From the IMG/VR virus record IMGVR_UViG_3300032373_000001: a DNA stretch of 64,000 nucleotides, one strand, 5' to 3'. Positions within the stretch are counted from its first letter, which is position 1, and each line of letters starts with the position of its first letter. Below are positions 11,812-50,716 of this stretch, in pieces. Both the position numbers and the translations under genes were made by a program. The notes beneath the pieces were generated by a model that worked only from the letters and a program-made list of their open reading frames with translations, was not told the DNA's origin and did not search any database. This DNA is from a virus (Duplodnaviria > Caudoviricetes).

Positions 11812-11820
11812 GGTATCCTC

Positions 11821-33386: not shown

Positions 33387-34583
33387 TCACTGGAAGTGGC
33401 TGGTCACGTCCGGAGCCGACTGCCAGAGCTGGCTGAGGTCCATGTCACCCTCGGCCGAAGCCTCCTTGGTGACAGTGCCCAGCGTGGACGGGCCGGTCGA
33501 AGCCTTCTTGGGCTGCGGCTTGAGGTCGAGCTCGGAGGCTTCCTTGGCCTGCTCGTCGGCGAGACGGGAGACCTCATCGCCCTGGAGCTGGGCCAGGAGC
33601 GAGCGCTCCTCCTCATCGAGTGCCATGATGTTCATGGGGTCCATGTCCATCTCGACCTCCTCTTCCTCGTAGAAGGAAGAGGGCTCGTTCTGGTCCATGC
33701 CGACATCTTCCACGGCCTCGGGCTCCATCATGCCCTCTTCGCGCATCATCTCCATGTACATGGCTTCGTAGTCGTCGCCTCCCATGGGCTCACCGCAGGC
33801 TGCCTGAGAGGCCATGCCCTCTTCGTCGCAGGCCTTCTTCTTGGCCTCCTCGTCGACCTCGACCTCGACCTCCTCCTCATCGCTGTCGTCATCGCTGTCG
33901 TCATCGCTGTCGTCATCGCTGTCGTCGTCATCATCCTCATCGCCCTCATCGTCATCCTCGGCGAGGCGCATGAGGATGCGCTCCAGGCGGGCGACGCGGG
34001 ACTCGGTGTCGTCTTCGGCAGCGAAGCGGGTCAGGACGCGCTCCAGCGTCGCGATGCGGCCTTCCAGGGAAGCCTGCTTCTCTGACTCCTCCACCCCCTC
34101 AGCCTTGTGCTCGACCTCCTCCTGGATGGTCTCAGCGGCCTCAGCCTCAGCCTTCTCTTCCTTCTCGGTGCCCGCGGCCTTGTCCTCGGCCTGCTTGTTG
34201 AGGTTCTCGAGGCTGGTGAAGATGTGGGACTCGGGCAGGTCCATGAACAGGCTGGCTTGCCTCTCGACCTTCATCACGTCGGCGTCGGTGGAGGGCTCGC
34301 CCAACATCGCCGTGGCGAGGCGCAGGCAGAGGTTGGCCTTCTCGATGGCAGCCATCTTGGAAGCCGGGTGGTCGTGGCCCTCATTCGGGACAGCGGGTGC
34401 AGGTCCGTTCGGGTACGGGCCGGGGTGCGGGTCCTCAGCCCAGGAGCTGGGGTCGCCGTTCTCGTACTTGTCAGCCTCGGGGTCGGGCTGAGAGTGAGCG
34501 GGCGATGCCGGTCCTTCGTTGGGCACGGCGGGAGCCGCCGAGCTCTTCTTGTTGTTCCAGGTCAGTCGTTGACGAGCCATCAC
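33387..34583 (-). CDS. Capsid scaffolding protein
   Basis: Very acidic, coiled-coil and low complexity; lies between protease and capsid genes. Confidence 0.8.
   Translation of the reverse strand: MMARQRLTWNNKKSSAAPAVPNEGPASPAHSQPDPEADKYENGDPSSWAEDPHPGPYPNGPAPAVPNEGHDHPASKMAAIEKANLCLRLATAMLGEPSTDADVMKVERQASLFMDLPESHIFTSLENLNKQAEDKAAGTEKEEKAEAEAAETIQEEVEHKAEGVEESEKQASLEGRIATLERVLTRFAAEDDTESRVARLERILMRLAEDDDEGDEDDDDDSDDDSDDDSDDDSDEEEVEVEVDEEAKKKACDEEGMASQAACGEPMGGDDYEAMYMEMMREEGMMEPEAVEDVGMDQNEPSSFYEEEEVEMDMDPMNIMALDEEERSLLAQLQGDEVSRLADEQAKEASELDLKPQPKKASTGPSTLGTVTKEASAEGDMDLSQLWQSAPDVTSHFQ
33877..33924. repeat. Coding tandem repeat (TCATCGCTGTCG)x4 encoding (DDSD)4
   Basis: Four exact 12-bp copies read from the sequence. 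Confidence 0.9.
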
Positions 34584-34592
34584 GAACTCCTC

Positions 34593-36047
34593 TTAGAGGG
34601 TTTGCGGGTTGTTGTTGCGCTCCCACTTGGAGAGCAAGGAGCCGACCCGGACAACAACCCGGAGTTCGGCAGAGGAAAGCTCCCTCCCCGCCGCGCGCAG
34701 GATGGCGCGCTTGTAGTCTTGCGGGGAAGTGTAGCGAACCGGGGAACCGACCTTCAGCGCCACCCGGTAGGGTGCGGGGTCGGTCGGGATGCCGTAGGCT
34801 TGGTTCAGGGTGGCGACCCCTTCCACCAAAGCCACTTGGGAAGAGGCGGTGCGGGTCAGCAGGTCCATGCTGACATGGTACGCCTTGCGAGCAAGTCGGG
34901 CACCAGCCTCTCGCTGAATCGAATCGTTGGGCTGGAATGTGACCTCCGAGTCTGCCTCGGACGCCTCATCTTCCCTCAAGTCCTCATCGATGCGGTCGTG
35001 GACCTTGTCCTTGACCTTCTCGTAGACCTTCTCGGTGAGGTCTTCGAAAGGCTTCTTCGGCTCTTCGCCCTTCGGCGCATCGCCCCCTTCCTCGTCGTCG
35101 TCCTCGAAGTCGAACGCCTTGCAGAACTTGGGGAGGGTGAGGTTGGCAGCCTTGCTCATGGCGGTGTCGGACCAGCCGGTGGGGGCCTGGGCCAGAACAT
35201 CCCGCAGAGCCTTCTTGACCTGAGCGGGAGGGAGGTCACCTGCATCGATCAGGTTGCGCATGACCGCCCCAGGGAAAGCCGGGACCTTGACCCAGCTGGC
35301 CTCGATGAAGTTCACGCCGCCCGGAGCGTCAGGGTTGTCCTTGTAGTCGATGTGGCCGCAGAGCTCTGCAACGACGCGCTTCTGTTGGCGCTCGTCCAAG
35401 AAGCTATTGAGCTTGCTGATCTTGATGTGGTCGCAGAGGTCCGTCTCATCGACCGCGACATGGCCGCACTGAGAGCAGATGGTGAAGTCTGTGGTACAGC
35501 CCATGCTGAGGGTGCCCATGACCCCAGCCCTGATGTCGCGGACCAGGGTCTCGTGCTTCCGGTCGGTGGCGACCAGAATGTCGATGTAGACCGAATCCCC
35601 GATGTCGCGGGCGACCGCATCCAGGATGCGACCCTTACTCTGGGCCTCGATCTGGACGTGCTCTTGGAAGTTGTGGCCCGCGATGAAGGTGGGGTAGCTC
35701 GCCGTCAGGACCGGACGGCTCCAGCAGTCGCCGTTGTTGTTGACGAACTGAGCCGACTTGTCGGTGATGTAGAAGTCGCCCCAACGACGGTCGATGGTCC
35801 GGGACCCGACCCGGACCCGACCCAGCTTGGCGTTGGGGGCCTGCTCAGTATCCACCGAAGCCACGATGGTGCAGTGAGTGAACAGGTACTTGTCGGGGTC
35901 CAGGCTGCCGCCCAAAATCTCCCTCGCCTGATCTGTCAAGTTGCGGTTGCTCGCACCCGAGGTTGCAGCGGTGCGCGTTCGGCTCCACTGGCGACGACTC
36001 ACGTAGGGGTGAACCACCATGGCATTGGCTTTCTTCGAGTGAGCCAT
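34593..36047 (-). CDS. Prohead maturation protease (herpesvirus/HK97-type serine protease fold) with Zn-ribbon insert
   Basis: NNNGD.W, EH..IE..SKGRILD, LSMGC..DFTICSQC...CDH, FIEASWV..PAFPGA; position upstream of scaffold and MCP. Confidence 0.82.
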   Translation of the reverse strand: MAHSKKANAMVVHPYVSRRQWSRTRTAATSGASNRNLTDQAREILGGSLDPDKYLFTHCTIVASVDTEQAPNAKLGRVRVGSRTIDRRWGDFYITDKSAQFVNNNGDCWSRPVLTASYPTFIAGHNFQEHVQIEAQSKGRILDAVARDIGDSVYIDILVATDRKHETLVRDIRAGVMGTLSMGCTTDFTICSQCGHVAVDETDLCDHIKISKLNSFLDERQQKRVVAELCGHIDYKDNPDAPGGVNFIEASWVKVPAFPGAVMRNLIDAGDLPPAQVKKALRDVLAQAPTGWSDTAMSKAANLTLPKFCKAFDFEDDDEEGGDAPKGEEPKKPFEDLTEKVYEKVKDKVHDRIDEDLREDEASEADSEVTFQPNDSIQREAGARLARKAYHVSMDLLTRTASSQVALVEGVATLNQAYGIPTDPAPYRVALKVGSPVRYTSPQDYKRAILRAAGRELSSAELRVVVRVGSLLSKWERNNNPQTL

Positions 36048-36604: not shown

Positions 36605-36609
36605 GAAGG

Positions 36610-37008: not shown

Positions 37009-37038
37009 CAGGGCCTCCTGCAGATTAAGATGCTACAC

Positions 37039-37060
37039 CAGGACACAAATAAGTGTCCTG
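37039..37060. promoter_or_regulatory. 8-bp inverted repeat CAGGACAC-AAATAA-GTGTCCTG
   Basis: Read directly, in an AT-rich gap upstream of the head assembly genes. Confidence 0.4.
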
Positions 37061-37088
37061 TATTGACAATCCACCGGGAGTAAAACGA

Positions 37089-40000
37089 TCAATTCCGGTG
37101 CAAATCGGACGCTTGCTTGCCGGTGGCAGTGATGAGGTTCTTCAGGTACTCCTGAACCCAATCGAGGAAGGCACGCTTAGACCGCAACTCTGTCATCTTG
37201 CGTTTAGGGGCAGCTTTGGCCCGCGCTTTCTTGGCAGCCCTCTTGTGGTCAGCGACCACTGCTTCGCGGCCGACCTCTTTGGTCACCGCCGGGTCCAAGA
37301 ACGCGGTCTCAGCCTGCATCAAGTCGATGAGGTGCTGCCGGATCTCATTGCGGTCCTCGTCGCTGAGGTAGCCTGAGCGGTCGGGGTCGGTGAGGAACTG
37401 AACCAGGGAGGCACCCGGATGGTCTTCCGGCAAGAGATCTTCCAAGTCTTGGTCCGTCAGATCCTCGTAGATGCTGCGCATCATGCGCTGGTCTGCCAGA
37501 CCCGAGCCACCGTACATGGAGAGGCCAGCCAACTTGTCCAGGGACCCAGCTTTATCTGCTGCCTGAACCAAGCGTGCCATAGAGCTGGCAACGCCCGTAG
37601 CCTTGTCCCCGTCTTGGATGGCGCTGGCCATCCCGATCCCACGCTGGATCGCCTCAAGGTGGTCCCGTTGGGCACTGTCCTCGGGAAGACCCTCAATCTT
37701 CTCTTCGACCCTTTCCCAGTGTCGCTGACGGGTATCCGCATCCAGCTTCTTGTAGGAAGAGACCGCGCTCAAGGCACGCTCCGCAGCAGCCTTCTTGCTC
37801 TCCTCGGAAGAAGCCTCACCCTTCGGAGGAAGCGGGTCTTCCAAGTCTACTGCGGGGTTGTCCAGCACGTTTTCGTAGTAGGCCATAAGCGCCAGGTTCT
37901 CCGCCAAGGTGGTGGGGTCCTTCACCGAACCTTTCTGGACCTGATCCGTCATATCCTTCAGGGCTTCCAGCAGCCGAGAACTGTCGGGGATGGCCTCTCG
38001 AACCAGCGAGGAGGACGCAGTACTGAACTGCTCCTTGAACTCCTCATACTGATCCGCCCCGAAAGAGTCCAAGACCTCGCGAGTCTTGTCGCGGGAGTCC
38101 TCGGGAACCCCCCTCAGTGCCCTGGTGGTGTACTTCTTCCGCTCCGTAAAATAGCGGTCCAGGGAGACCTCCGAGCTCTCATCCTCTTTCGGCTTGTCCG
38201 CCGAGGGAGCCTCTTTCTCGGGAGCCGCCTCATTCTGCTGGCGGAGCTTCTCTTGCTGAGACTCAGGCAGGGAACCGAACTCGACCTTGTTCCCGGTCTC
38301 TTCGGAGGTGTACTCCTTGCCCTCTGCCCAGTCAGGAACCTTCGCTGCCATACGAGCTACCCTGGCAGCGCTGGGCATGCGAGGGTAGCTTCGATCAAAA
38401 GGGTCGGGGGTCGGGACCCCCGAGGCCCGCTGTTCGCACTGACGCGACCGGATGCGGGTCTCATGTAGACCCGCATCCTTGTAGTTCTGGGAGCGGTCTT
38501 TCTTGTCCTGCTTCTCGTCGGGATCCTGATCTCCGTCGGTGTCGACCTTGCGGTTCCGGAGGTCCATGCGAGGAGGCTTCTTCTTGGGGGACTGCTGTAC
38601 CAGTTTCTCAGCTTCCCGGTCGTCCTTCTCCCCCTCGCTGAGAGTCGACTGCTTGAACCAGACTGCGGAGAGCTGACCCGACAAGGATGCCTTGACCTTC
38701 TTGCCCTTGTTCCGCTTCTCGTTGACCCACCGCCAGAACTGACCGATGGGCATGGTGGAGATCTCACCCTCCTTGAAGTATCCGGGCTTAGAGTACTGGT
38801 TCTTGTAGGCCCCGATGGCCTCCTCGACCGAGTTGAACCCCAGCATCACCTTGTCTTCATCGTACTTCCCGTCCCAAGGGTTGTGCTGATGAACCACGAC
38901 CACCAGAGAGCTGTCGTGGTTATCGCCCACATACACGTCGAGCTTGTCGCCGTCCGTACCCTCGGTGCCCCGGATCTCCCCGTAGTGGCAGATCATCTTG
39001 ACGGACCAGGGCTCCCCGTCAGGGTCCGTGCCGGAGCGGGTGCTGCCCTTCTTGTTCTCCACGTCGATCTTGACGCCCTGGAAGTCGATGAAGCCTTCGA
39101 AAGGATACTCTTTCCGCTTGGCCTTGGGGGGGAGGACCTTGACCGGGTGGAAGTTATGGGGAGACTCGACCAACTTCTGGTTGGTCGAGGCGAACTTCAC
39201 CGTATAGCCAGCAATCTGACGGGTCAGGTCCCCCACGCGATAGCTGAGGAGCTGAGCCTCTTCGTTGTCCCAGAGGTCCCGCACGTCTTCAGCAAGGTCA
39301 TCGATGCGGCGGAACAAGCGGATAAACCCGAGACCCGGCAGGGCGGGTCGCTTGCCGCTGCGGGGCTTGATGTAGCCCTCTACGACCTCCCGGAACTGTC
39401 GGTGGAGGTCGTAGAGCTTCCGGGATGCCCGGTGTGCCCCTTCTACGGCAGCCTCTGCGGCCAGCGCCTTGGTAACCGTGCTCAGATCTTCAACCTGCTG
39501 ATGGAAGGGCGACCGGATCTTGAGCGGGAACACGTCTGCAAGTTTGAGGGTCGCGAACCTCCAAGCACGCGGTCGGGCCGACCCCTTGCGCACGGACTCC
39601 ACGTGACGCATGAACTTCAGAAACTTAAAGCTCAGCGACTGAAGCTCCCAACTCGGCCAAAGCTCCGACGCCTCGTAGAGTGCCTCATCAGCCTCTTTCA
39701 TCTTCCCCAAGAAGTAGTCCCACTTGGGTTCCACGAGCGGGTTCTTGCGGGACTGCTTCATAGAGGGCTCGATGCCATCGATGAACGCGGAAGACATCTT
39801 TGCGTAGGCCCGGCCCAGCAGGGCTTCAGCGGCCTGAGCTCCAGGGTCATCCCTGAACTTGGTGCGCGACCCATGGCTGAATGCAGCGATGCGCGCCATG
39901 AGGTTGTAGGATTCCTTGTAGAGCGGGAAATACCGCCACGCCGGGTCAGCGTATCGGGGGCGCTCCTGGCCCGCATCCATGAGCTGGAGGTTGTCGTAGA

Positions 40001-41507
40001 CCCCCGAAAGCCCGGTCGCCTCCTTGGCGAGGCGGAGTTGGCAGCGGTTGTTCACGTCTACGATACGAGGGTTCTTGAGCTTGGTCGCATCGAACCACGC
40101 GGTGCTCTCGATCATCCAGCCCTCGACGAACGGGGCACCGCGCGCCGTGACGTGAACTCCGTCGTAGAAACCGGCGACCTCCGCCCAGTCGATGCGGATA
40201 TCGGAACCCTCTTCTTCGTAGTCATCCTGCTCAAAGGTCACTGGATCGAGGTAGGCGAACGGGTACACCAGCCCGAAGAGATAGTCCCTCTGAGAGTCGA
40301 TCACCAAGAGGTTCGCTGAAGGGGCCGGGTCCAGCAAGACCGCCTTCTCTCCGACCCACTCCGGCATCTCACCCTTACACCAGTCCAACCACGGAGAGAT
40401 GTTGCCCTTCAAGGTGCTGGTCCAGAACGCCTCGCGGGGCTTGAACCGGGCTACCTTCGGACTGAACATCTTCCGGAGGGTCTGGTACTGAAACTTCTGT
40501 CCGGGGCGGAGCAGGAAGACCTGAGTCCCGAGAGCCTTGGCTTGACGCTCCGAGGCGAACCGCTTCAGGAGCTCCCGGACCACCTGCTGACGGTATGCGG
40601 GCTCGGTGAGACCAGACTCCTTGACCTGCTGAGCCCAGACCCCAGCATCCTGCTCCAGCTTCGCCTGGGCATACTCCGAAAACCTGGCATAGCGCGTAGT
40701 CATAGAGGCTTCCTTGTCGAGCTTGTCCAACACCGTACCGTCCTGAAGGAAGCGGTCTACCATCCCAGGGACCAGGTACTGGCTTTTGAGCGTGCTGGCC
40801 TCATGGCCCACAGCTGCTGCCGCAATCTCCAGGGCATCGGCGAGCTCTTGCTTCAGGATAGGGTCCCGCTCTTTCCGGGGCGTGGGAAGCTCAGGACCAT
40901 CGCTGCGGATCTTCTTCAGGGCTGCACGCACCTCTTCGTTTGCGTGAAGACCCCGGAGGTCCTTGGCGGTGACCCCAAACTCCTTGAGGTAGTCGTTGAC
41001 CTCGGAGGCAGTGATGGAGCAATCCGCACCCTCGCAGAGCACCTTGTCGTCTGAGCCTTTGCCGTCGAGCGCCTTCTTCAGCGCCCCTACCAGGGCACCG
41101 TCTTCGACGGTTTTGTCGTGCTTGACGCCACTCTTCCCCACGTACTTGAAGGTGGCCTTGTTGCCCTCCACCGTGACGTGCTTCTTCAACCAGCCAGTGA
41201 CCCCGAAGTGCCCATCCTTGGCCGACTCCGGATTGCCCACCCTCTCGTAGGTGTTGTCGATGAGGGCCACAGCCAAGGCCGTAAGGCGCTTCTGAGGGTC
41301 AGAAGCGGAGAGGTCCTTCTTGTACTTCGACCGGAGCTTGCCGATGCTCTTGCGGAGCTTTTCGACGCGCTTGGCCTTGGCCTTGTTCCGATTGGACTGC
41401 TGGATGGGGCCGTACTCGTACACGGTCGTCTTCCCCGAGCCGTCTACCTTGTCGACCTCTTTCTTGTTCTTGTACTTGGCCAGGACCCGGCTCGGATCAA
41501 GTTTCAC
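37089..41507 (-). CDS. Polyvalent protein: topoisomerase IB + unknown (ART-like?) domain + inorganic pyrophosphatase-like domain + acidic helical region
   Basis: Topo IB pentad (ERVGN, GKSG, KDLR, GH-x8-Y); FQGVKIDVENKKGS.RSG.D..G...YGEI.GT.G.DGDKLDVYVG...DEDKVMLGF. GTG start at 41507 overlaps the upstream TGA, with GGAG RBS. Confidence 0.8.
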   Translation of the reverse strand: MKLDPSRVLAKYKNKKEVDKVDGSGKTTVYEYGPIQQSNRNKAKAKRVEKLRKSIGKLRSKYKKDLSASDPQKRLTALAVALIDNTYERVGNPESAKDGHFGVTGWLKKHVTVEGNKATFKYVGKSGVKHDKTVEDGALVGALKKALDGKGSDDKVLCEGADCSITASEVNDYLKEFGVTAKDLRGLHANEEVRAALKKIRSDGPELPTPRKERDPILKQELADALEIAAAAVGHEASTLKSQYLVPGMVDRFLQDGTVLDKLDKEASMTTRYARFSEYAQAKLEQDAGVWAQQVKESGLTEPAYRQQVVRELLKRFASERQAKALGTQVFLLRPGQKFQYQTLRKMFSPKVARFKPREAFWTSTLKGNISPWLDWCKGEMPEWVGEKAVLLDPAPSANLLVIDSQRDYLFGLVYPFAYLDPVTFEQDDYEEEGSDIRIDWAEVAGFYDGVHVTARGAPFVEGWMIESTAWFDATKLKNPRIVDVNNRCQLRLAKEATGLSGVYDNLQLMDAGQERPRYADPAWRYFPLYKESYNLMARIAAFSHGSRTKFRDDPGAQAAEALLGRAYAKMSSAFIDGIEPSMKQSRKNPLVEPKWDYFLGKMKEADEALYEASELWPSWELQSLSFKFLKFMRHVESVRKGSARPRAWRFATLKLADVFPLKIRSPFHQQVEDLSTVTKALAAEAAVEGAHRASRKLYDLHRQFREVVEGYIKPRSGKRPALPGLGFIRLFRRIDDLAEDVRDLWDNEEAQLLSYRVGDLTRQIAGYTVKFASTNQKLVESPHNFHPVKVLPPKAKRKEYPFEGFIDFQGVKIDVENKKGSTRSGTDPDGEPWSVKMICHYGEIRGTEGTDGDKLDVYVGDNHDSSLVVVVHQHNPWDGKYDEDKVMLGFNSVEEAIGAYKNQYSKPGYFKEGEISTMPIGQFWRWVNEKRNKGKKVKASLSGQLSAVWFKQSTLSEGEKDDREAEKLVQQSPKKKPPRMDLRNRKVDTDGDQDPDEKQDKKDRSQNYKDAGLHETRIRSRQCEQRASGVPTPDPFDRSYPRMPSAARVARMAAKVPDWAEGKEYTSEETGNKVEFGSLPESQQEKLRQQNEAAPEKEAPSADKPKEDESSEVSLDRYFTERKKYTTRALRGVPEDSRDKTREVLDSFGADQYEEFKEQFSTASSSLVREAIPDSSRLLEALKDMTDQVQKGSVKDPTTLAENLALMAYYENVLDNPAVDLEDPLPPKGEASSEESKKAAAERALSAVSSYKKLDADTRQRHWERVEEKIEGLPEDSAQRDHLEAIQRGIGMASAIQDGDKATGVASSMARLVQAADKAGSLDKLAGLSMYGGSGLADQRMMRSIYEDLTDQDLEDLLPEDHPGASLVQFLTDPDRSGYLSDEDRNEIRQHLIDLMQAETAFLDPAVTKEVGREAVVADHKRAAKKARAKAAPKRKMTELRSKRAFLDWVQEYLKNLITATGKQASDLHRN

Positions 41508-44500
41508 AGCTGACTCCAACGGAGGGACAACTCTCGCATTGCCTGAATGCTGGCGAGACGCCCGGCATCTTGAAGGGGGGTATTCGGGGGCAAGTACCCA
41601 GGACTCGAACCGAGCGGGATGTTCTCTGGGGCACCCATGCCCCAGATCTGGACGCTGTTGAAGTCCCAGGAGCCCCGGGGAGCCTCCAACCTCACTTCCT
41701 CACCTACAGGCACGTAGGCGATCGTGACGTGGGGATTCCAGCGGGGGAACGAATCCTTGACCTCGAACCCCGCCTCTTCGAGCCGTGCGCGGAGCCCATC
41801 TCTGGCCCGATTGAGGTCGCGACTGAACCGGACCCTGCTGAAGATGACCTTTTGCTCAGGGCTCAAGAAGCGGTCCAGCCCTCTCAGGGCAGCCCGGACC
41901 GGGCCGCGGACCTCACTGAACGCCTGGGTGCAGACAACCTTGAAATCTTCCTCTCGCCCCTCGGGGACCTGACCCACGTACAGGAGGGTGATGTGGGCCG
42001 GGGATGGGTCCTCACTCTTGGTCGGGTACTGAGCCGCCAACCCCTCCGGGAGGGGAATGAACAGGCCCACAGAAGTGCCCGTGGGAGGGACCACCGCAGC
42101 AGCCTGGGCGGAAGCCGTTCGGCTCTGAGGGGCGGAGGCTCGCCGGGACATAAAAGTGTGACCCCTTTCCCGGCCCGTCTCGACGAACCCGCGACGCTTC
42201 AGCATGCGAATCGCGTGAGGGTTGACTGCATCCAGGCAGAAATCCAAATCCTCGAAGGCTTCAGAGATTGCATCGTACTCGTCGATGGCATAGTCCATGA
42301 GCTTGGCCCCGAGGCCCTGCTTTTGCCTGTCGGGGCGGACTGCGATGTCGAAGGAGTAGCAGTCGTTGCTAACCTCGTCGAACAGTACCGCGACCAGCTC
42401 CCCGCCGACCATGAGCCCTGCCTTGAAGTCCTTGCCGCTGAAGATGTTGATGCCCGCTTGCTTGGCGATCTCCCAAGGGTCCGGGCCATCCCACGGAACC
42501 TCGAAGACCCACTCGACCCGATTGCTGAGCTTCAGGGCCTTTTCCTCGCCGCCTGCTGCCAAGATAAGGACACCGTCCTCTTCTTTGAGCACATCACCCT
42601 CGAACCGGGCTCCCTGAGCCGTGGTCCAAGCGACCTTGGTCTGCTGGGTCCACTTCTCCCCATCGGTATCTCGTCCAGCCTCCAGCGCGCCGAGATAGAA
42701 CCAGTGCTCTTCGATGCTGGCACGATCTGCGCCGCGAGGCAGGGCAGCCGTAGACGCCCCGTAGTCGGGTTCGGTGACCAGCTCCCAGGTGTTGGAGTAG
42801 AGGACCGGGACGCCCGCAGCGTCTTCTTTCGACTGGCCGATCGTCGGGTGGATGCTCGCAGTACGACTCATGCCCGCCCCCTTGGGCTGAGGAGAACCAT
42901 TCGCATACAACCGGGAACCCCGAACATAGCGCACCAGGTCCTGTTCTCCCAGCTGATAGGGGGTGTTGCTCAAGAGACTCATGGCCTGGGCCTTGGTCAT
43001 CAGCTTCGGACCCTTCAGGACGACGTCCTGATTCCAGGTGACCTCTTCCGAATAGGAGGGCTTGGGCATGGTGTCGGTCCGGAACCGGATTGCAACGACC
43101 GGACCCTCATCCTTGTCGATGTGGGTAGTCTGGGTCCCCGGGACGTAGTCTCCCCACACCAACGAGATGGCATACACGGCATAGCCGCCGAACTTCTTGA
43201 TTCCGGGCGGGTCAAGCAAGAGCTTCTTGGAGCGGAGAATAGAGGCAGCACGCTTGGCGGTGGTGAAGTGGACGAACTCATCCGACGCCAAGTTCATCTC
43301 ATAGACGCGGCCTTCCATGAAGGTGGTCTCGCTCGTGGGCGTCGGACCCGCAGAGCCCACCTTAACCTTCATGGTATCTCCAGTCCACTCCCCACCCTTT
43401 TCCTTGTACCACTTGGCAGCCCACCCTTGATGGAATCGGACAGGCATCTTGGGGTGCTTATCTTGGGCCGACCTCAGCGCCTCGGCCCAGAGGGCTGCAT
43501 TCTCGGGCTTGCCGAAGTCCCCCTCAAAGAACTCCCTTGAACCCTTGAACCAAGCCGCCCGAAGCTGGCGAGACGCAGCGCTGGAGAACAGGCCCGCCAC
43601 AGCCTTGTAGGCTTCCCCGATCGCCTTCCTGTACTTGCCCTGAGCAGAGGCTCCGGCCCGCTTCAGGTCATAGAAGAACGCAAGCGGATAGGTCCGGGTG
43701 TCGTGCCGGCGCTGGCCCACCATGATGCGGAAAGCTGCTGCCCGTTCCTCTATCGGGAGGGCTTCCAACCCCTCCCGCATACGCTCAATAGCGTCCGGCA
43801 ACTTGGTGTAGAACTCCCGGTCGTCCAGCGAATGCTGCGATCGGTTTTGGCCCTGCTGGCGGATGTCCGGGGTGCGGATCTTCTTGCCGGGGAGGCCCGC
43901 CTGGATCTTGTCGGAGGCGAATCCCGCCAGAGTGCTCAGGAGGTTCTGGGCATAGTGGCGCATCTCGTGCTGAAGGGCCTGCTGGATCCACTTGGCGTTG
44001 ACCTTCGGGCTAACCTCGACCTCTATGACGGCGGTGCGCGGGTCGAACTCGGCCGAGCGACGACCTCTGGTGTCGCTGAGTATCAGATTCACCCCAGGCT
44101 TCTTGGCACTCCGAAGGATGTCACGCTTCATATTCTCGATGTAGGCGAGCATGTAGTCCGGGATCGGACCTTCCGGGGGCTGGAGCTTCTTCAGGAGGTC
44201 AGCGTTTTCCTTCTCGATCAGCTCCTCAAGGCGGTCCCCGTACTTCCAACCCTTGAGGTCTGCTTCGAACCTCTTCTGAACCGGCCCGCTCAACACCACG
44301 GCTTCTGGGTGGAGCTTGCTGAGCCGTTCCCACTCCTCCCATGCAGAGTTGTCGGAGCCCATGCCTTGGGCCACGCCCTTGTCCATACGGGTTTTAGCCC
44401 AAGAAGCGACGGCCCAGCGATACATCTCGTCCAACATCGCCGGAGGAGCTTCGAGCAGACCTGCCTGCTTCGATGCAACGAAACGGTCAGGGATACCCAC

Positions 44501-46897
44501 GGGCCGGGTAGCAGCGGCGCACTTTTCAGAAGAGATCCTGACCGTCGGGAGAACCTGCCGCAACATCCCCAGGATCATATCCGGAACAGCCTTGGGGCCG
44601 AAGGCAACAAGTTTCCCCAACGCTTCACAGAAGGACTCCTCGGGGTTCTTGTTGGCGTACCCGCTGATAGGTAGCCCCGGAACGCGGACCACGGGGGGCC
44701 CGCCCCCTTCCAGATAGTCCCGGATGTCCTCTGCTGAGTCGAGGCCCTGACTCGACGCGGGGCCGTACTCCAAGGCAGAGAGTTGGAGGTGTAGGATAGG
44801 GTCCGCCTTCTTCAAGGCACTATCGATGACCCAAGAGGCACCCACAGATTCCATCTTCCGAAGAGCCCGGCGGAGGTCCAAGTCCTTGGAGGTCCCCCGA
44901 ATGAGTCCCCCCCAAGTCTTCCGGGCATCTCCGGAGAGCACCGTCTGGTAAAGGTGATGGCCCATCTCATGGGCCATCACCCAGACAAACCTGCGGATGT
45001 CCGAGCCGAGCTCCCAAGGGGTGACGTGGATCATCCCCCTCTCATAGTAGGCCCCTGCGCTGCTGGGGACCCCCGCCTCAAAATTCCACTGAATGTGGAC
45101 CGGGACCATACGTTGGAGAATGATGGGGGCGGTTTGTTGGGAACGCTCCCGAAAGAGGGCCAAGCCCTGCCGAACGATCGGGAGTTTGTCTTGGTACGGG
45201 GAGTCTTCGAAGCCTCGGAACACCACGCGGAACCCCGAGAGGCTCACGACCTCTTCCTCCGGGACCAGAAAGGGGATCGGCTCCTGACCGCCGCGCAGAC
45301 TCGCAGACCACTCTGCCAAATCCCCAAGCACCGACCACGACTTGCGCGCCTTTGCCCGGATGCGGTTGGCCCACTTTCGGGCTTCGTCTTTCCACTTGCC
45401 CAGAGCTTCCACTTCGGCTTCCTGCCGGGACCAGAGCGGACGGCGCGTCAAGTAGGACCGAGTCTGAGCCTCTGCGTCCTCTCGAGAGGACGCATATCCC
45501 CGGTCCAAGTAGAACCGGACGAGCTCTTCAAACAGTTCCTCTGGGGGTCGCCAAGGGTTCCCCGAGGAATCCTTCACCGGAATTTGAGAAGAGGGGACCC
45601 TGCCCACCTCATAGGCGAACTCCCACATCGGCTTGAGTGCTCGATCCAAGAAGGCGCGGGCATCTTGAACATTCGCAGGGGAAGTCCTCCCAGGATACTG
45701 GGAGGAGCGGATGCGGCCTTCCAAGTCCTGGCGGACAGTAGCCGTGAAGGAATCGAAGTGCTCCCGCCAACGGTTGACGGCAGCAGATACCTCCTGGGCC
45801 TGAGAGATGCTTTGAACGCGGTCAGCGGCCTTGGCCAGGGCCAAGATGTCTTTCCGAAACCTCTGGATAAGGTTCTCGTCCAGCACTTCCTTGCGGGCAG
45901 TCTTCCCCGGCCCCTTCTTGTCAGCGGCTTCCATCTGCTGGAGGATCTTCTTGACCCAAGCGAGCCCAGGGTCACCGCCCCACAGGAGCCAAGAGACGTA
46001 CCCCTTGTCGTTCCAGGGCTCGCCCTTGTGCTCTTCGGAAATGCCCTTGTTCTTCTGGTGCCGACTGAAGAAGCCGTGCATCTGCTTGATGGTGTCGGGG
46101 GCGATGTTGTCGCGGTTCTTCAGGTTGACAGCGCGCTGAACGCCGGACCCGATGCCCTCTTTGCCAGCTTCCTCGGAAGTCAGACCGCCCTTGTTCGAAG
46201 GGGACGCCTTCTGACGATACTCCAAACCCTTCTCCGCAGCTTTCGCGACCGACTCCGGAGGCTGGAAGTTGATGCCCTTGTATTTCTCCGGCACAGCCGA
46301 CCGAAAGCTAAGGGCCTGCTTGAACCTGCGTGGACTCAAAAGGGAGGCTGCGCGGGGGAAAGCAAACCGCACCGGATCCTGACTGACTCGAACAGGGAGG
46401 TCAAGACCAACATCCCTCAAGAGGGTGGAGGCCCTCGAGACCCCGCCAGCCGAAGGGACCAGGAGCCCCATCATTGCCCCGCTAACCTTGACCGGGGCAT
46501 ATTCCCGCTTGGAGACCCACTCCCCCTCATCCTTTTTCCAGAGGAAGGAGTCGAGCATCGCCTGCCCCTGAGCCTCCTCGACGCACTCTTCATCCTCCTC
46601 GCCCCACTCCTCGTCGTAGCAGCCATCAGGGATTTGGAACTGCTCATACCAACCCTCCCCCGCGATGTAGTCTGCGTGAACGGGGTGCTCCTCGGCCCAA
46701 CGCTCTGTGTATTCCACGGGAATTAGCTGGCTCCGGAGCTTAGAGGCATCCAGCACCAAGCACACATCCCGATGACTGATGTCACCGCTGAACAGAGGCT
46801 TCACCGAGAAGCTCAAGAAGGGTGCGGGACTCTTCATGACCCCCGAACGAAGAATCTTGAGCGCGTTGGACCAAGAAGTGGTGTGGTAGAGATTCAA
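41504..46897 (-). CDS. Polyvalent protein: two ART-like domains, two zincins, GNAT, 2H phosphoesterase and several small conserved phage domains
   Basis: LYHTT..LSFS..EGE; WLLWGGDPG..W; HEMGH; HEMRH; GWAAKWYK.KGG.W; VHFTT; AVRPDRQKQGLGAKL; HITL...PHVTI. TTG start. Confidence 0.78.
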   Translation of the reverse strand: MNLYHTTSWSNALKILRSGVMKSPAPFLSFSVKPLFSGDISHRDVCLVLDASKLRSQLIPVEYTERWAEEHPVHADYIAGEGWYEQFQIPDGCYDEEWGEEDEECVEEAQGQAMLDSFLWKKDEGEWVSKREYAPVKVSGAMMGLLVPSAGGVSRASTLLRDVGLDLPVRVSQDPVRFAFPRAASLLSPRRFKQALSFRSAVPEKYKGINFQPPESVAKAAEKGLEYRQKASPSNKGGLTSEEAGKEGIGSGVQRAVNLKNRDNIAPDTIKQMHGFFSRHQKNKGISEEHKGEPWNDKGYVSWLLWGGDPGLAWVKKILQQMEAADKKGPGKTARKEVLDENLIQRFRKDILALAKAADRVQSISQAQEVSAAVNRWREHFDSFTATVRQDLEGRIRSSQYPGRTSPANVQDARAFLDRALKPMWEFAYEVGRVPSSQIPVKDSSGNPWRPPEELFEELVRFYLDRGYASSREDAEAQTRSYLTRRPLWSRQEAEVEALGKWKDEARKWANRIRAKARKSWSVLGDLAEWSASLRGGQEPIPFLVPEEEVVSLSGFRVVFRGFEDSPYQDKLPIVRQGLALFRERSQQTAPIILQRMVPVHIQWNFEAGVPSSAGAYYERGMIHVTPWELGSDIRRFVWVMAHEMGHHLYQTVLSGDARKTWGGLIRGTSKDLDLRRALRKMESVGASWVIDSALKKADPILHLQLSALEYGPASSQGLDSAEDIRDYLEGGGPPVVRVPGLPISGYANKNPEESFCEALGKLVAFGPKAVPDMILGMLRQVLPTVRISSEKCAAATRPVGIPDRFVASKQAGLLEAPPAMLDEMYRWAVASWAKTRMDKGVAQGMGSDNSAWEEWERLSKLHPEAVVLSGPVQKRFEADLKGWKYGDRLEELIEKENADLLKKLQPPEGPIPDYMLAYIENMKRDILRSAKKPGVNLILSDTRGRRSAEFDPRTAVIEVEVSPKVNAKWIQQALQHEMRHYAQNLLSTLAGFASDKIQAGLPGKKIRTPDIRQQGQNRSQHSLDDREFYTKLPDAIERMREGLEALPIEERAAAFRIMVGQRRHDTRTYPLAFFYDLKRAGASAQGKYRKAIGEAYKAVAGLFSSAASRQLRAAWFKGSREFFEGDFGKPENAALWAEALRSAQDKHPKMPVRFHQGWAAKWYKEKGGEWTGDTMKVKVGSAGPTPTSETTFMEGRVYEMNLASDEFVHFTTAKRAASILRSKKLLLDPPGIKKFGGYAVYAISLVWGDYVPGTQTTHIDKDEGPVVAIRFRTDTMPKPSYSEEVTWNQDVVLKGPKLMTKAQAMSLLSNTPYQLGEQDLVRYVRGSRLYANGSPQPKGAGMSRTASIHPTIGQSKEDAAGVPVLYSNTWELVTEPDYGASTAALPRGADRASIEEHWFYLGALEAGRDTDGEKWTQQTKVAWTTAQGARFEGDVLKEEDGVLILAAGGEEKALKLSNRVEWVFEVPWDGPDPWEIAKQAGINIFSGKDFKAGLMVGGELVAVLFDEVSNDCYSFDIAVRPDRQKQGLGAKLMDYAIDEYDAISEAFEDLDFCLDAVNPHAIRMLKRRGFVETGRERGHTFMSRRASAPQSRTASAQAAAVVPPTGTSVGLFIPLPEGLAAQYPTKSEDPSPAHITLLYVGQVPEGREEDFKVVCTQAFSEVRGPVRAALRGLDRFLSPEQKVIFSRVRFSRDLNRARDGLRARLEEAGFEVKDSFPRWNPHVTIAYVPVGEEVRLEAPRGSWDFNSVQIWGMGAPENIPLGSSPGYLPPNTPLQDAGRLASIQAMRELSLRWSQL

Positions 46898-46905: not shown

Positions 46906-49323
46906 CTATACGTCGAGCTTCCAGCCACCGAAGAGGACCTCCGCCAACTTCTCCGCGGAGACCTCTTCGTCGATGAAGTCTTCCATATGAGAGGCGGTCA
47001 GGTCAAACTCCGTGGGGTCGTAGTTGTTGGCCTGGAACAGAGCAGCAGTGCGCTCCTCGTCCGGCGCGTTGGCCATCTTGATGTTGGCCTGTTTCTGAGC
47101 CTTGACGGCGACGGAGCTGGTGTCGCGGGTGAAGAGCTTGTTGTAGAGAGAGCACCGGTCCTCCCCGCTGGCCATCCGCCGCGAATGCGCGCACGTCCCG
47201 CAGCGCTCCATCTCCACCACCTTCGGGATGGAGTTTGCCCGGTGCTTCAAGGCTCCTCTCTCGCACCCAGTCACCCCGTGAGGTGAGGCATAGGCAGCTG
47301 CGTCCACGTACAAAAAGCCACTGCCTCCCTCGTGCTCCTCGCGGAGGGAGGCAATCCGGGGGGCTGCCGCCGAGAGAAGCCTCTCAGAGTAACGGTGCTC
47401 CAGGTAGTCGGTCAGGTCCTTGCCGGCCAAACCCTCTGCCATCGCCTGGCGTGCCCCCTTCAGGGCACTGAGGATCTGCCCCTCTGCGACACCCGCCTCC
47501 TTCTTCTCGGAAGCGGCGCGGGTGAACGTCGGCTGGTCGTACTGCTTGGCCTTCTGGGACTGATCAGCCAGGGCGGAGGTCTTCTTGAGCAGCGGGGCCA
47601 ACATCTTGATAGCGGCGGGGCGCTCGGACGCATCCAGCAAGTTGGAGATGAACCGTCGCAAGGTCTCCCCCCGAACGCCACGGTGCACCTCTTGTTCGAC
47701 GCGGGTGACCTTCTTCTTGAGGGTGGCCAGCTTGTTCGCTTCGCGTGCCTCAGCAGCCCTCTTCAGACTGTCTTCTTCTCGCTGGCGGGACCCAGAAGCC
47801 TTCTGGAGCGCCCACTCATCCATGTTCTGACCTGCGCCAGTCCCCTCGAACAACCGGGACCGGGACCGGGCGGCCAGCTTCGCAGCGACCTCCAGCTTGC
47901 GGCTGGGGAGGGCCGGGGAGTCCAGGATCCTCTGGGACACCGAATCCGAGAGGAACCCAGAGTCCCGCCAGCTGAGGATCTTACGCCGCGCTTCCTCTGC
48001 TTGAGCTTGCTTGTCCGCTGCCTTGCGGTTCTCTCGAATACCTTGAGCGCGGGCTTCCTGATCCCGCTCCCGTTCGGCACGCTGAGCAAGGCGGAGCATG
48101 CTCAAGGCCCGTTGCCCCTCAAGGCCCTCGGATGAGGTGCCAGAGTAGTTGCCAGAGGTGACCCTGTTCATGAGGATCTGCGCCGAACGGTAGATGTCAC
48201 CCGGCTGAGCCGAACCTTCCAGGATCCGGCGTGCGTCCTGCTCCGAGACGTGGCCCAGACGCACCAACTTGCGGAGGTGTTCCTGGGCGTCAGCTGCTGC
48301 CACTGCCTTGCGGTCTTCGCGTCGGTCGTAGACCTTGCGCTGCGGGGGCTGGTAGTTCCGCAAGACCTCTTGGGCCTCCCGAAGGCCGACACGCTGATCT
48401 GGGGTCAGGTTCCGAACGAATGCCGTCTGAGGGGCTTCCTTGTGGGGGCCACTCAAGAAGGCTGCTCGGAGCACCTCCTTGGGGTGACCCGAGGCCAGCC
48501 GGTGGCCGGCAGCCCTCAGCCGAGGGACGTAGTGAGCCAACGCCTTCTGCCAAGGTACACGGGAGACAGCTTTCTTGCCTGTGAGCTGGCAGCGCCCATC
48601 GTGGATCCAGGCGGCGTTTCGGAGCTGGTCTTCCGTCACGATCACGTAGAGGGCCTGCTTGGCGTAGCGCTTGACGTGACCGACGCTCCCCCGGTTGTGC
48701 CAGTCCGGGAAAGCCGAAGCACGGACATACACGTTCCCGTGCAGACCGTGCTCGGCCCGGATCCGGTCCAGCGAGGCGTCGAGCTTGTGAGCTTCCAGCC
48801 CCACTGCCTCGCGCGCTTGGCGAACGATCGTATCGATGTCGTGTCCGGCGATGCTACGGCGCATCGCATGGGCGAGAATCTTGCGGGCGACCCTTGCCGT
48901 GAGCTGCGCCTTCTGCTCCTGCACGTCATCTTCGAAGCGGGCGCGCTTGATGTCACGCTCCCAAGTCCGGACGCCGTCGGTGCTGCCGCCCCAAGCCTCC
49001 TCCAGCTCCGGGATGATCTGAGGAGTTTCCGGCAGCCGCTCGGGATCTTGAAGTTGGGTGGGGTCCAGCCAACTCAAGTCAGCCAACCCGTCCTCGTCCA
49101 AGAAGTCGAGGTTGAGGTTGGCGGACCCTGCGCGAGCAAGACCGTCTGGCAGGGCCGGGGCAGGGTGATGCTCCGGATCCAGCACGCCCCCCAAGACCCC
49201 CGCGCCATAATCCAAGGTGGGAAAGCCGTCCAGACCATAGTTGCTGCCCAGCGTGGGGGTCAGCAGGTCTTCGGGGATGTGGCTCTCGCCCAGGAGGTCC
49301 AGATCCGCGTTCTTGTCAGACAT
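46906..49323 (-). CDS. Large head-cluster hypothetical protein with internal repeats and C-terminal Cys cluster
   Basis: 805 aa; two G[HF].S.....RIL repeats; C...CGTC...C near the C-terminus. Confidence 0.75.
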   Translation of the reverse strand: MSDKNADLDLLGESHIPEDLLTPTLGSNYGLDGFPTLDYGAGVLGGVLDPEHHPAPALPDGLARAGSANLNLDFLDEDGLADLSWLDPTQLQDPERLPETPQIIPELEEAWGGSTDGVRTWERDIKRARFEDDVQEQKAQLTARVARKILAHAMRRSIAGHDIDTIVRQAREAVGLEAHKLDASLDRIRAEHGLHGNVYVRASAFPDWHNRGSVGHVKRYAKQALYVIVTEDQLRNAAWIHDGRCQLTGKKAVSRVPWQKALAHYVPRLRAAGHRLASGHPKEVLRAAFLSGPHKEAPQTAFVRNLTPDQRVGLREAQEVLRNYQPPQRKVYDRREDRKAVAAADAQEHLRKLVRLGHVSEQDARRILEGSAQPGDIYRSAQILMNRVTSGNYSGTSSEGLEGQRALSMLRLAQRAERERDQEARAQGIRENRKAADKQAQAEEARRKILSWRDSGFLSDSVSQRILDSPALPSRKLEVAAKLAARSRSRLFEGTGAGQNMDEWALQKASGSRQREEDSLKRAAEAREANKLATLKKKVTRVEQEVHRGVRGETLRRFISNLLDASERPAAIKMLAPLLKKTSALADQSQKAKQYDQPTFTRAASEKKEAGVAEGQILSALKGARQAMAEGLAGKDLTDYLEHRYSERLLSAAAPRIASLREEHEGGSGFLYVDAAAYASPHGVTGCERGALKHRANSIPKVVEMERCGTCAHSRRMASGEDRCSLYNKLFTRDTSSVAVKAQKQANIKMANAPDEERTAALFQANNYDPTEFDLTASHMEDFIDEEVSAEKLAEVLFGGWKLDV

Positions 49324-50038
49324 CGTAGTTCTCCAGGACCTCTTGAGTCAGTGCAGTGAACTGTCGCAGCTCTTGGAGCATCACCCCTTGCTCTGCGGAG
49401 GCCACTCGGATGTTGGGGCTCAACAAGACTGCCAGGGCCTCGCTGCTGGATTGAAGGCGGGCCATCAACACTCCACGGGCAGAGGCTTTCTTGCCGCGAG
49501 CGTTTTCGGCGTCTTCTTCCGCCTCCTCTTCCCGAGCCCACCCTTCGGGGTCTTCCTTGATGTCCTCAGCATCCTCGACGATCTCCTTGACCTCCTCTCG
49601 GTCGCGAGCGTCGAGTTTGTCTTCGGCCGGGTCCCAGTGCGGAGCCTTCAGCTCATCGTAGATGGTATCGCTCAAGGCACTCAGGACTTCGACGCAGTTC
49701 ATCAACTGGCGGCGCATGTCTGGGATCTTCTGGATGTAGCCCTTGCCCCCCAGAGCGCCGTCCGGAGAGATGTCCCGGGACTTGATCTTGACCATCCGCG
49801 CATGCGCGGAAGTTGCATGGCCCAGGGCCATCAAGGTCGACCGCATCACCACCGCCAAAGGCTTGAGGTACTTGGCGTTGAAGATGAAATCGTCATCGAT
49901 ATAACGCTCGCTGGGTCCGGTGGTGTTCCAAGCCCACTCGGACTTGTCCCCGGCACGGTCCTTGACGAACCGGACCTCACCAGCGGACTTGGTAAACCCC
50001 GCTCGGGCTACCACGCGCAGGGGGCTAACTCGGGGCAT
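49316..50038 (-). CDS. Head-cluster hypothetical protein with RVVAR tag
   Basis: Starts MPRVSPLRVVARAGFTKSAG; contains KKAS and RVAS; GAGGAG RBS. Confidence 0.75.
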   Translation of the reverse strand: MPRVSPLRVVARAGFTKSAGEVRFVKDRAGDKSEWAWNTTGPSERYIDDDFIFNAKYLKPLAVVMRSTLMALGHATSAHARMVKIKSRDISPDGALGGKGYIQKIPDMRRQLMNCVEVLSALSDTIYDELKAPHWDPAEDKLDARDREEVKEIVEDAEDIKEDPEGWAREEEAEEDAENARGKKASARGVLMARLQSSSEALAVLLSPNIRVASAEQGVMLQELRQFTALTQEVLENYDV

Positions 50039-50098
50039 AATCTTCTCCTCAAAGCAGGAGGAAGATAAACCCTCTACCGCTGGGAGACCCCGTCGGGA

Positions 50099-50716
50099 CT
50101 AAGCCTTCAGCGGCTCGCCCGTCTCATCGAACAAGCGGGTCAGCAGCAGGTTCCCATCTGCGTCCTTCTGGAAGTTCCAGAGGTCCCGATCCGCCTTGTG
50201 GATCAGGGTGTTGCCATCGCGGGCTGCCTTCACGAAGAAGTCGGTCAGGTCCCCCAACGAAGCCACACGGAAGCTCGAGACCGAAGATGCGATGCGGCCC
50301 CGCGGGTCCGCAGGCACTCCCACAGGTGCGGAAGCCTTCTTGCCTTGACCCGGGCGCAAGTACAGGGCACTCACCGTCCGGAGTTGGCCATCGTCCCACT
50401 GGACGAAGACGCGACCCTCATGGGAAGTGATGTCGCCCCCCGCACTGCGAACAGAGACCACTTCCCCGCCCATGCCGTTCCCAGGAGGGTTGTCCATGGA
50501 GAGGTAGGCTCCGAGGCTTCCGGCGAAAGTCACGCGGGTCCCTGCGGGGACGGGCAGCGACAAGGCGTGGGCCTCCCGGTGTTGGTCGGTCAGCTGGCGG
50601 ACCGACTCGAAGTCCTCTCCGAGGGCCTTGCCGCCAGCACCCTTGAGGAAGGAGTCCATCTCGGATTCCTCGCTCTGGTAGCCTGCGGCCATATCGCGCC
50701 AAAACTGATCGGACAT
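50099..50716 (-). CDS. Head-cluster hypothetical protein (SH3-like + C-terminal LIHK..DLW domain)
   Basis: GAGGAGG RBS; KKAS, RIAS, RVAS sites separate the two parts. Confidence 0.75.
   Translation of the reverse strand: MSDQFWRDMAAGYQSEESEMDSFLKGAGGKALGEDFESVRQLTDQHREAHALSLPVPAGTRVTFAGSLGAYLSMDNPPGNGMGGEVVSVRSAGGDITSHEGRVFVQWDDGQLRTVSALYLRPGQGKKASAPVGVPADPRGRIASSVSSFRVASLGDLTDFFVKAARDGNTLIHKADRDLWNFQKDADGNLLLTRLFDETGEPLKA

Follow-up and report, generated by a model that had tools for sequence, protein, structure and literature searches.

A [K/R]-x-Ala-Ser motif shared by head proteins and multi-enzyme proteins of a huge phage, and its probable cleavage by the prohead protease

The stretch of DNA analysed here (the window) comprises 64 000 nucleotides of a tailed-phage genome (IMG/VR virus record IMGVR_UViG_3300032373_000001; Duplodnaviria, Caudoviricetes) and covers the region in which a huge phage encodes its head and packaging functions, with a GC content of 0.62. 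Two giant multi-enzyme proteins are encoded there between the portal and the prohead protease, and they share with the structural head proteins a short motif, [KR]-x-A-S. The motif occurs in the head-module genes more often than chance would give, and it is most likely the cutting site of the phage's own head-maturation protease. On balance, we favour a reading in which this protease cuts [KR]xA[S>A,T,G] both in the head proteins and between the enzyme modules of the giants. The sequence feature is real and well supported and the mechanism is probable. Since [KR]-x-A-[S>A,T,G] is distributed like known prohead-protease substrates, we infer that this protease family cuts at it; we also infer that the protease is the reader of the motif, where the scissile bond lies, that the giants are packaged and that they are delivered into the host.

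The motif statistics cover the window and the related loci that were fetched. For the nine genes at 33387-50716, composition-preserving shuffles of each protein gave an expectation of about 20 occurrences of the loose form of the motif, [KR]xA[SAG], against 60 observed (3-fold), and 5.7 of the strict form, [KR]xAS, against 26 observed (4.6-fold). An unbiased scan of the same genes placed R.AS first among 8000 a.bc patterns (16 vs 3.05 expected, p = 1.5e-7), with K.AS third and K.AG fourth among the gapped tripeptides; R.A and K.A head the a.b patterns and AS heads the dipeptides, and no pattern ending in Glu, of the T4 or phiKZ type, was among the top enriched. The window's other 44 genes show no such excess for R.A (82 vs 80 expected), K.A or AS (110 vs 102), and only a mild one for R.AS (10 vs 5.9) and K.AS (5 vs 2.9), together 15 vs 8.8. 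Ten different Ala-Ser codon pairs are used at the sites. This diversity points to selection at the protein level rather than on a DNA word, and a DNA-level explanation of the motif was ruled out on the same grounds.

On the minus strand, the genes run in the order TerL, portal, six smaller genes, an 805-aa (amino acid) gene, the 1797-aa giant, the 1476-aa giant, a 132-aa and a 188-aa gene, protease, scaffold, a 223-aa gene and the major capsid protein (MCP). The features that matter below are:

56664-58580, minus strand, TerL (PHROGs)
54423-56333, minus strand, portal (phrog_16240)
50099-50716, minus strand, 205-aa small head-module protein
49316-50038, minus strand, 240-aa small head-module protein
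46906-49323, minus strand, 805-aa head-module protein, fold not recognised
41504-46897, minus strand, giant 2, 1797 aa
37089-41519, minus strand, giant 1, 1476 aa
36610-37008, minus strand, 132-aa protein
34593-36047, minus strand, prohead protease, 484 aa (phrog_18299, head maturation protease), with motif sites RTAA 25-28 (35964-35975), REAG 379, RTAS 399-402 (34842-34853) and RAAG 451
33387-34583, minus strand, acidic scaffold-like protein, 398 aa
31642-32514, minus strand, MCP, 290 aa (phrog_2522, E 8.6e-51)
3202-5865, minus strand, 887-aa polyvalent protein outside the head module, with a PARP-type ART domain and a second, weak HYD1-ART from residue 731 (Pfam)

In public gene calls, these proteins lie on a contig of 410,989 bp; in one such call giant 1 starts at the GTG at 41507, giving 1472 aa. 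The nearest named relatives are an uncultured phage, LR745208.1 (485 kb), and the cultured Tunturiibacter phage Tunturi 5 (309 kb; PP885688). IMG/VR relatives include UViG 3300028177_000001 and 3300007512_000008. Seven related loci share with the window the order protease, scaffold, 223-aa gene, MCP, and the placement of the giants between portal and protease is syntenic in two further IMG/VR phages, L033 and L034, whose MCPs are 87-90% identical to that of the window. The original prediction, made from the DNA letters and a list of open reading frames (ORFs), had listed the genes, their Topo IB, InPase, GNAT, 2H and ART domains and a set of motif sites, including those in the scaffold, the protease and the portal termini (RTAS, RFAS, KTAS); all are present at the positions it gave, and direct reading confirmed the GTGA stop/start overlap of the two giants at 41504-41507. 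Its distance of about 14 kb between portal and protease holds for the portion within 33387-50716, while the full distance is 18.4 kb.

The 484-aa protein is, by its predicted structure, the prohead serine protease, with the fold of T4 gp21 and the herpesvirus assemblins. An alignment-based AlphaFold2 (AF2) model has a catalytic domain at residues 33-258 (35274-35951) with predicted local distance difference test (pLDDT) values of 80-95. The best structural match of the model is T4 gp21 (5jbl; Z 10.2, root-mean-square deviation 2.9 Å over 139 residues), followed by more than 20 herpesvirus assemblin entries (Z 5-7) at 10-15% identity; Foldseek by itself was weak, finding gp21 at E 0.02. Residues H58, H130, S181 and H232 are invariant in 41 homologues, with Ser181 lying within LSMGC (35496-35510). 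In sequence searches, no Pfam or NCBIfam family matched even at E 5 (Peptidase_S77/U9, S78 and S80 included), a PDB sequence search returned nothing meaningful, and the only PHROGs matches were phrog_18299 (E 2.8e-8) and phrog_2774. More than 1100 homologues, all unnamed, are found in metagenomes.

The protease itself carries the motif, and so do its relatives. Across 120 homologues there are 671 sites against 219 expected; a site is found near residue 27 in 120/120, near residue 298 in 73, near residue 400 in 103/120 and near residue 449 in 106/120. The residues of the site near position 27 vary (KVAS, KTAS, RVAS, KQAS and others), and throughout the homologues Ala is always the third residue of the motif, with the basic and x positions varying. 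The AF2 model places sites 25 and 379 in disordered stretches adjoining the folded domain; site 399 is at a helix end rather than in free coil.

The structural proteins follow the same pattern. The scaffold has eight sites where 1.0 would be expected (p < 0.002). Three (KEAS, KKAS, KEAS) are in the C-terminal stretch at 33456-33545, and four relatives have sites at aligned positions, two of which precede the conserved C-terminal tail. The MCP has KLAA at residues 24-27 (32434-32445); all nine relatives have [KR]-[LI]-A-[AS]-S at residues 24-28, KLAA alternating with R/KIAS. The portal has RTAS at 52-55 (56169-56180) and RFAS-L-KTAS at 581-589 (54567-54593; RFAS 581, KTAS 586), and in LR745208 and L034 the portal ends with ...GRF, at the very point where RFAS starts here. 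The 805-aa protein holds 12 loose sites against 4.1 expected (p = 0.002), four of them AS sites, and its orthologues in L033, L034 and LR745208 (L002) are similarly enriched. The two small proteins at 49316-50716 have five sites vs 0.69 expected and three vs 1.0; KKAS, RVAS and RIAS fall in the variable C-terminal parts of the 240-aa and 205-aa proteins and recur in the variable linkers of their orthologues. In the 132-aa protein there are three sites against 0.25 expected, with KFAA directly preceding a conserved C-terminal NLF tail, and among relatives of this family the position is kept as the residues vary (KVAA, RRAS, KTAS; KFAA, KKAS, KVAG). The same motif pattern is seen in gp328, gp332, the MCP (gp334, with KLAA) and the protease (gp331, with KTAA and KVAS) of Tunturi 5. 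The link to the prohead protease made in the original prediction is thereby supported, through sites conserved in scaffold, MCP and the protease itself and through the gp21/assemblin fold.

Some further observations concern these head genes. A 52-residue C-terminal extension of the portal (54423-54593) has RFAS-L-KTAS as its start and shares 68 nt with the next ORF. The tail of the 132-aa family (window, L033, L034 and L002) has the conserved form [KR]-x-A-[ASG]-x(2-3)-NLF, and its members in relatives reach 326-412 aa through long coiled acidic inserts rich in motif sites; the family may provide a second scaffold-like protein. Between two paralogues of this family among the head genes of LR745208.1 (L002:18380-19240), we noticed by eye an ORF with GIY...YVG, a signature typical of GIY-YIG homing endonucleases. 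In L007 (IMGVR_UViG_3300035696_001556), a low-GC relative, the prohead protease and portal genes (9971-12889 and 3920-7375) contain in-frame insertions with Hint/intein-splicing and LAGLIDADG homing-endonuclease domains, that is, inteins in two head genes.

In the giants, the strict sites tend to fall where homology breaks: of the 10 [KR]xAS sites, 7 have a homology-breakpoint peak no more than 20 residues away, against 13% expected (p ~ 1e-4). The homologues of giant 1 (109) and giant 2 (37) are polyvalent proteins of 800-3000 aa with varied accessory domains, and Topo IB is a recurrent hub, present in 74 of the 109 homologues of giant 1. Among 127 non-redundant polyvalent homologues, junction zones make up 17.9% of the residues, and they contain 48% of [KR]xAS, 47% of [KR]xAT and 45% of [KR]xAA sites. 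The corresponding shares for control motifs were 18% for [^KR]xAS, 13% for [DE]xAS, 23% for AS.[KR], 18% for [LIV]xE and 14.5% for [AGS]xE (enrichment ratios of 1.0, 1.0 and 0.81 for [^KR]xAS, [LIV]xE and [AGS]xE, respectively). With homologous sites collapsed, 86 of 202 contexts (43%) are junctional, compared with 15-21% for most controls. The enrichment at module borders that the original prediction had proposed to look for was therefore found. Several polyvalent homologues and proteases stem from contigs of identical length, and so probably share contigs. Precomputed Pfam lists for the homologues P0002-P0143 give as further modules Fe/Mn superoxide dismutase, carbonic anhydrase, RNA ligase, PolyA_pol/CCA-type nucleotidyltransferase, PAP2 phosphatase, NUDIX, ChaC, Ham1/ITPase and AAA_33 kinase.

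Giant 1 is laid out as follows:

40782-41396, minus strand, Topo IB domain, residues 42-246 (Pfam, E 1.6e-24)
40704-40715, minus strand, motif site KEAS 269
39186-39197, minus strand, motif site KFAS 775
38724-39098, minus strand, InPase domain, residues 808-932 (Pfam, E 2.4e-40)
38469-38480, minus strand, motif site KDAG

The top homology-breakpoint peaks of this protein are at KEAS (n = 56), KDAG (19) and KFAS (18), and relatives have different modules between these three points; the C-terminal region is conserved. Before the InPase domain stands KFAS in the window, RTAA in L033 and KTAA in L034, and this site is exactly where homology blocks start. In L034, a 2H domain forms the N-terminus of a 989-aa 2H-Topo IB-InPase protein, whose start corresponds approximately to the position of the RRAS/RTAS linker in giant 2 of the window. 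A homologue 87% identical to giant 1 has a 163-residue insertion, matching an extra PAP2 domain, directly before an RVA-RMAA element. LR745208 is without giants and has instead a stand-alone Topo IB protein of 508 aa, whose homology to giant 1 ends at KEAS. The InPase domain matches PHROGs annotated as minor head or virion proteins, and one PHROG match of the region is annotated as DarB-like.

Two sequence elements of giant 1 and its relatives are worth recording beside the motif. Residues 977-1017 (38469-38591, minus strand) form a highly conserved basic element, SPKKKPPRxDL...DEKQDKKDRSQNY-K-D-A-[GS], which looks like an SPKK-type DNA-binding tail. It directly follows Topo IB in most of the 74 homologues and is displaced here by an insertion of about 680 residues; it ends in the motif and forms the biggest cluster of junction sites (21 proteins). 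A second element, P-x-R-V-A/L-x-[RK]-[WFY], recurs at module starts (RVAVRWA, RVARLFL, RVLAKYK, RVAAKYK, RVALRWAS), with examples at L034:9401-9460, L034:12370-12430, window positions 41480-41507 and internal joints. This RVA element overlaps the cleavage motif yet may be a separate docking helix.

Giant 2 has more modules:

46343-46354, minus strand, RAAS 182, following an N-terminal domain (residues 1-181)
45911-46295, minus strand, conserved block, residues 201-329 (phrog_2859, no Pfam family)
44957-44971 and 43955-43969, minus strand, two HExxH modules, residues 643 and 977
42905-43354, minus strand, ART-fold domain (AF2, structural matches)
42854-42865, minus strand, RTAS 1345
42164-42418, minus strand, GNAT domain, residues 1494-1578 (Pfam)
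42110-42145, minus strand, linker from RRAS 1585 to RTAS 1593
41606-42073, minus strand, 2H domain, residues 1626-1733 (Pfam)
41549-41560, minus strand, RLAS

The block at 201-329 is the most conserved part of the protein, with 70-91% identity in about 30 polyvalent proteins, and the strongest breakpoint peaks (201 and 329) bound it. In giant 2, the sites occupy the gaps between homology blocks. P0111, which is 83% identical, starts right after RAAS 182, and extra segments are inserted in it at sites 1339-1348 and 1593. In an AF2 model covering residues 1100-1797, the ART fold and 2H have high pLDDT. After the ART fold comes a disordered stretch of 86 residues (1332-1417) that holds sites 1339 and 1345, and residues 1569-1608, holding sites 1585 and 1593, are coil between GNAT and 2H; site 1780, after the 2H domain, is at a helix end and not in free coil. 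The low pLDDT of the GNAT region was not counted as linker because the shallow alignment gave a poor model there. The 2H model matches at Z 15.7, and the ART fold matches TreTu, Tpt1, DarT1 and Arr at Z 5-7. Gain and loss of domains at the sites, the other comparison that the original prediction had pointed to, is thus seen among the relatives P0111, L033, L034 and LR745208.

The 887-aa protein outside the head module has nine loose sites against 2.9 expected, and its HYD1-ART begins just after KKAS 723-726 (3688-3699). A paralogy between ART domains was considered and rejected: BLASTP of giant 2 residues 1182-1335 against the giant 2 N-terminal domain and the 887-aa ART protein gave no significant similarity.

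Shared leaders at the N-termini of small proteins give a more mixed result. The leader L-[AG]-x-[IS]-L-x-[QE]-[EQ]-G-[LV] (family A) is common to four ORFs of the window, and the original prediction had the motif standing at the leader ends; this is so in two of the four, where REAS or RTAG follows, and not in the other two, where no motif does. In the parts of relatives that were fetched, no family A leader was found. A second N-terminal leader, distinct from family A, is shared by the ORFs at 54152-54490 and 30411-30893 (both minus strand): ...ALVRLARSLPKGDETRRAIL and ...ALIKLARSLPEGDESRRAIL, respectively.

Several observations weigh against cleavage of the giants at these sites. Neither giant has a recognised capsid-targeting leader or, by Pfam, a MuF domain; MuF is absent from all head-module proteins scanned, as the original prediction had noted. 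The [KR]xA[AG] sites of the giants do not follow borders, and two junctions, at residues 943-948 of giant 1 (VKAS) and near residue 329 of giant 2 (KTAR), are without the strict motif. In the AF2 model of giant 2, site 1215/1216 lies within a helix of the ART fold and site 1479 in the first helix of the GNAT region. Disorder propensity flanking 45 loose sites was not significantly raised (mean percentile 0.55, p = 0.33) by a crude method that used the TOP-IDP scale. The p-values of the junction tests are inflated because the proteins are homologous, although the contrast with the control motifs stays robust. Finally, RVA-x-[RK]-aromatic elements sit at true protein N-termini in relatives as well as at internal joints, so part of the motif signal could come from a docking element. 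Placement at domain borders, the core of the original argument, stands for [KR]xAS (and [KR]xAT) in the giants; it fails for their [KR]xA[AG] sites and finds no support in the disorder test.

The main rival, which we consider unlikely, is that the motif serves the structural proteins only. The giants would then be uncut internally or end-trimmed, and maybe unpackaged, their joints having inherited junction peptides or conserved domain ends. The C-terminus of Topo IB, ...klD-K-x-A-[ST], does partly resemble a conserved domain end, since the motif is present in 46 of the 74 homologues and many of the others have KKGS or KQGS; the junctions without a strict motif, some of them big, and the disorder test lean the same way, and uncut delivery is known for N4 vRNAP and several plasmid polyvalent proteins (PMC5512222). 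This rival does not readily account for the 86 distinct junctional contexts, a share well above that of most same-composition controls, nor for sites in non-conserved linkers between unrelated domains, as between GNAT and 2H or between the ART fold and the β-domain. The enrichment at junctions also needs the basic residue two positions upstream of the Ala-Ser pair's first residue, as the ratio of 1.0 for [^KR]xAS indicates.

It is a good deal less probable that the motif is a docking or modification signal, either an RVA-x-R-aromatic helix that binds the scaffold or capsid interior, or a basophilic kinase site. No cut is needed where RVA elements form the genuine N-termini of relatives' proteins, protease site 399 and giant 2 site 1780 are at helix ends, and RRAS resembles the R-R-x-S consensus. 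However, the Ala is invariant and the Ser replaceable by A, T or G, which makes docking or phosphorylation less likely and suits the S1/S1' pocket of a protease better than a phospho-acceptor. The many sites in a scaffold that must exit the head, and the N-terminal site of the MCP, match the precedent of T4 and phiKZ, and no kinase was found in the head module.

We give still less credence to processing of the polyproteins by their own zincin-like (HExxH) modules, or by a host protease, in place of the prohead protease. Autoprocessing driven by MPTase domains was proposed by Iyer et al. 2017 (PMC5512222), and giant 2 has its two HExxH modules at residues 643 and 977. Pfam does not recognise either as an MPTase, however, and HExxH is absent from giant 1 and from its 87%-identical relative and present in only 38 of 143 related polyvalent proteins, so embedded zincins cannot be the general solution here. 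The motif is, moreover, conserved in the scaffold, MCP and protease of phages without giants, such as LR745208. Last, a chance or compositional artefact of proteins rich in Ala, Ser, Lys and Arg, for which one could cite the shortness of the motif and the 20 or so loose sites expected in the block, is effectively refuted by the shuffles, the unbiased scan, the contrast with the other 44 genes and the conservation of site positions in more than 100 homologues.

If the prohead protease is indeed the reader, the recognition motif in this huge-phage clade would be [K/R]-x-Ala-[Ser > Ala, Thr, Gly], with a basic residue at P3, Ala at P1 and Ser at P1', and cleavage, if it follows the example of assemblin, would take place between Ala and the next small residue. 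As the prohead matures, the protease would cut off both of its own ends and break up the acidic scaffold; the capsid protein would lose about 26 residues from its N-terminus, the portal tails would be trimmed, and the small head-module proteins would be processed as well. The giants, whose translation is coupled, would be polyvalent head cargo. Giant 1 would be divided into Topo IB, a part of unrecognised function, and InPase plus tail; giant 2 into the N-domain, the conserved block with zincins and ART fold, the β-domain with GNAT, 2H, and a tail. As the [KR]xAS sites fall in module joints, the same protease would release about 10 modules in the capsid; the 'dozens of effectors' of the original prediction were an overestimate, with some 9-10 products predicted from the giants. 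The freed modules may leave the capsid together with the DNA and serve as enzymes of early counter-defence or takeover, and the cleavable joints could double as seams for module swapping between related phages.

Assemblins cut A|S, with the consensus V/L/I-x-A|S, and T4 gp21 cuts after Glu (L/I-x-E). The likeness to T4 (gp21, with IPI-III and Alt, which carry a capsid-targeting sequence) extends to the protease fold, to one short motif in scaffold, capsid protein, protease and proposed cargo, and to short common N-terminal leaders on small proteins; T4 cargo is injected with the DNA. In contrast to T4, L/I-x-E is not enriched here, neither in the unbiased scan nor at junctions. T4 cargo consists of single-domain proteins that lose a leader, whereas here there are multi-enzyme chains with several internal sites, and unlike the T4 capsid-targeting sequence only two of the four leaders end in the motif. 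With assemblin, the protease shares the fold class (Z 5-7) and, provided that cleavage is at A|S, the P1 Ala and the P1' Ser; it would also share self-release and scaffold processing. P3 is basic here and hydrophobic there, however, the similarity is structural only (10-15% identity), and assemblin cuts two site types in its own precursor and scaffold, with no enzyme polyproteins.

A further parallel is with the jumbo phages phiKZ and SPN3US (gp175/gp245; PMC10052503, PMC5694885), where one essential prohead protease and one motif serve many head and ejection proteins, the portal and the protease itself, with multiple cuts within propeptides and a large mass of ejected proteins. For SPN3US, an AXE rule covers 14 sites in nine substrates, and packaged cargo is processed by the prohead protease (PMC10052503). 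The motif here has a basic residue and Ala-Ser instead of A-x-E. In SPN3US, 13 of the 14 cuts remove N-terminal propeptides, while the sites here lie between catalytic domains; the clade is unrelated to phiKZ, with an MCP of only 290 aa and no homology of the phiKZ inner-body type.

The giants themselves fit the polyvalent proteins described by Iyer, Burroughs, Anand, de Souza and Aravind in 2017 (PMC5512222). They combine at least two unrelated enzyme or effector domains per chain (Topo IB and InPase; GNAT, 2H, ART and two HExxH), are encoded among late virion genes and show rapid module turnover, and delivery with the DNA is predicted. They differ in having no MuF or MPTase hub by Pfam; the hub here is Topo IB, and topoisomerase is mentioned once in PMC5512222. 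They differ also in their proposed processing, which would be the work of the prohead protease at a defined linker motif instead of an embedded MPTase. Some of the Dar proteins of P1 are proteolytically processed before or during packaging (PMC5512222). As with DarA, DarB, DdrB and Hdf, large enzymes would be packaged in the head, and the DarB-like annotation belongs to a PHROG matched by the InPase domain; there is no sequence relationship to P1 beyond the InPase-bearing PHROGs. We know of no defined common cleavage motif at domain joints in P1.

The best reading of the whole is that the cargo-processing theme of T4 and phiKZ/SPN3US is combined here with polyvalent proteins; it is not a categorically new system. 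To call it undescribed, as was done originally, was too strong, since processing of cargo in T4 and phiKZ/SPN3US and polyvalent proteins had already been described. The differences from those systems are the basic-x-Ala-Ser motif, which comes nearest to the A|S rule of assemblin but for its basic P3, the several internal sites that would separate enzymes, and a Topo IB hub without MuF or MPTase. In the literature, which was covered incompletely, we found no description of the motif or of enzyme polyproteins cut by a prohead protease in phages.

Tentatively, and just short of the point at which we would favour it, this huge-phage clade may use a [K/R]-x-Ala|Ser code, closer to the herpesvirus rule than to that of T4, as a cassette system, in which enzyme polyproteins are loaded into the capsid, one protease releases their parts and modules are swapped at the joints. 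The cassette enzymes on that view, held with the same reserve, would be Topo IB, pyrophosphatase, 2H phosphodiesterase, GNAT, ART, superoxide dismutase, carbonic anhydrase, RNA ligase and nucleotidyltransferases. If true, this would amount to a polyprotein strategy in the style of eukaryotic viruses at work in tailed phages. The main reading, if confirmed, would supply a predictive cleavage code for a very large family of head proteases, making virion proteins and cargo readable from metagenomic huge-phage genomes. Polyvalent counter-defence proteins would be unpacked without an embedded peptidase, and the exchange of modules at fixed seams would be explained. It would also mean that phages package a type IB topoisomerase in their heads, a parallel to poxvirus virions.

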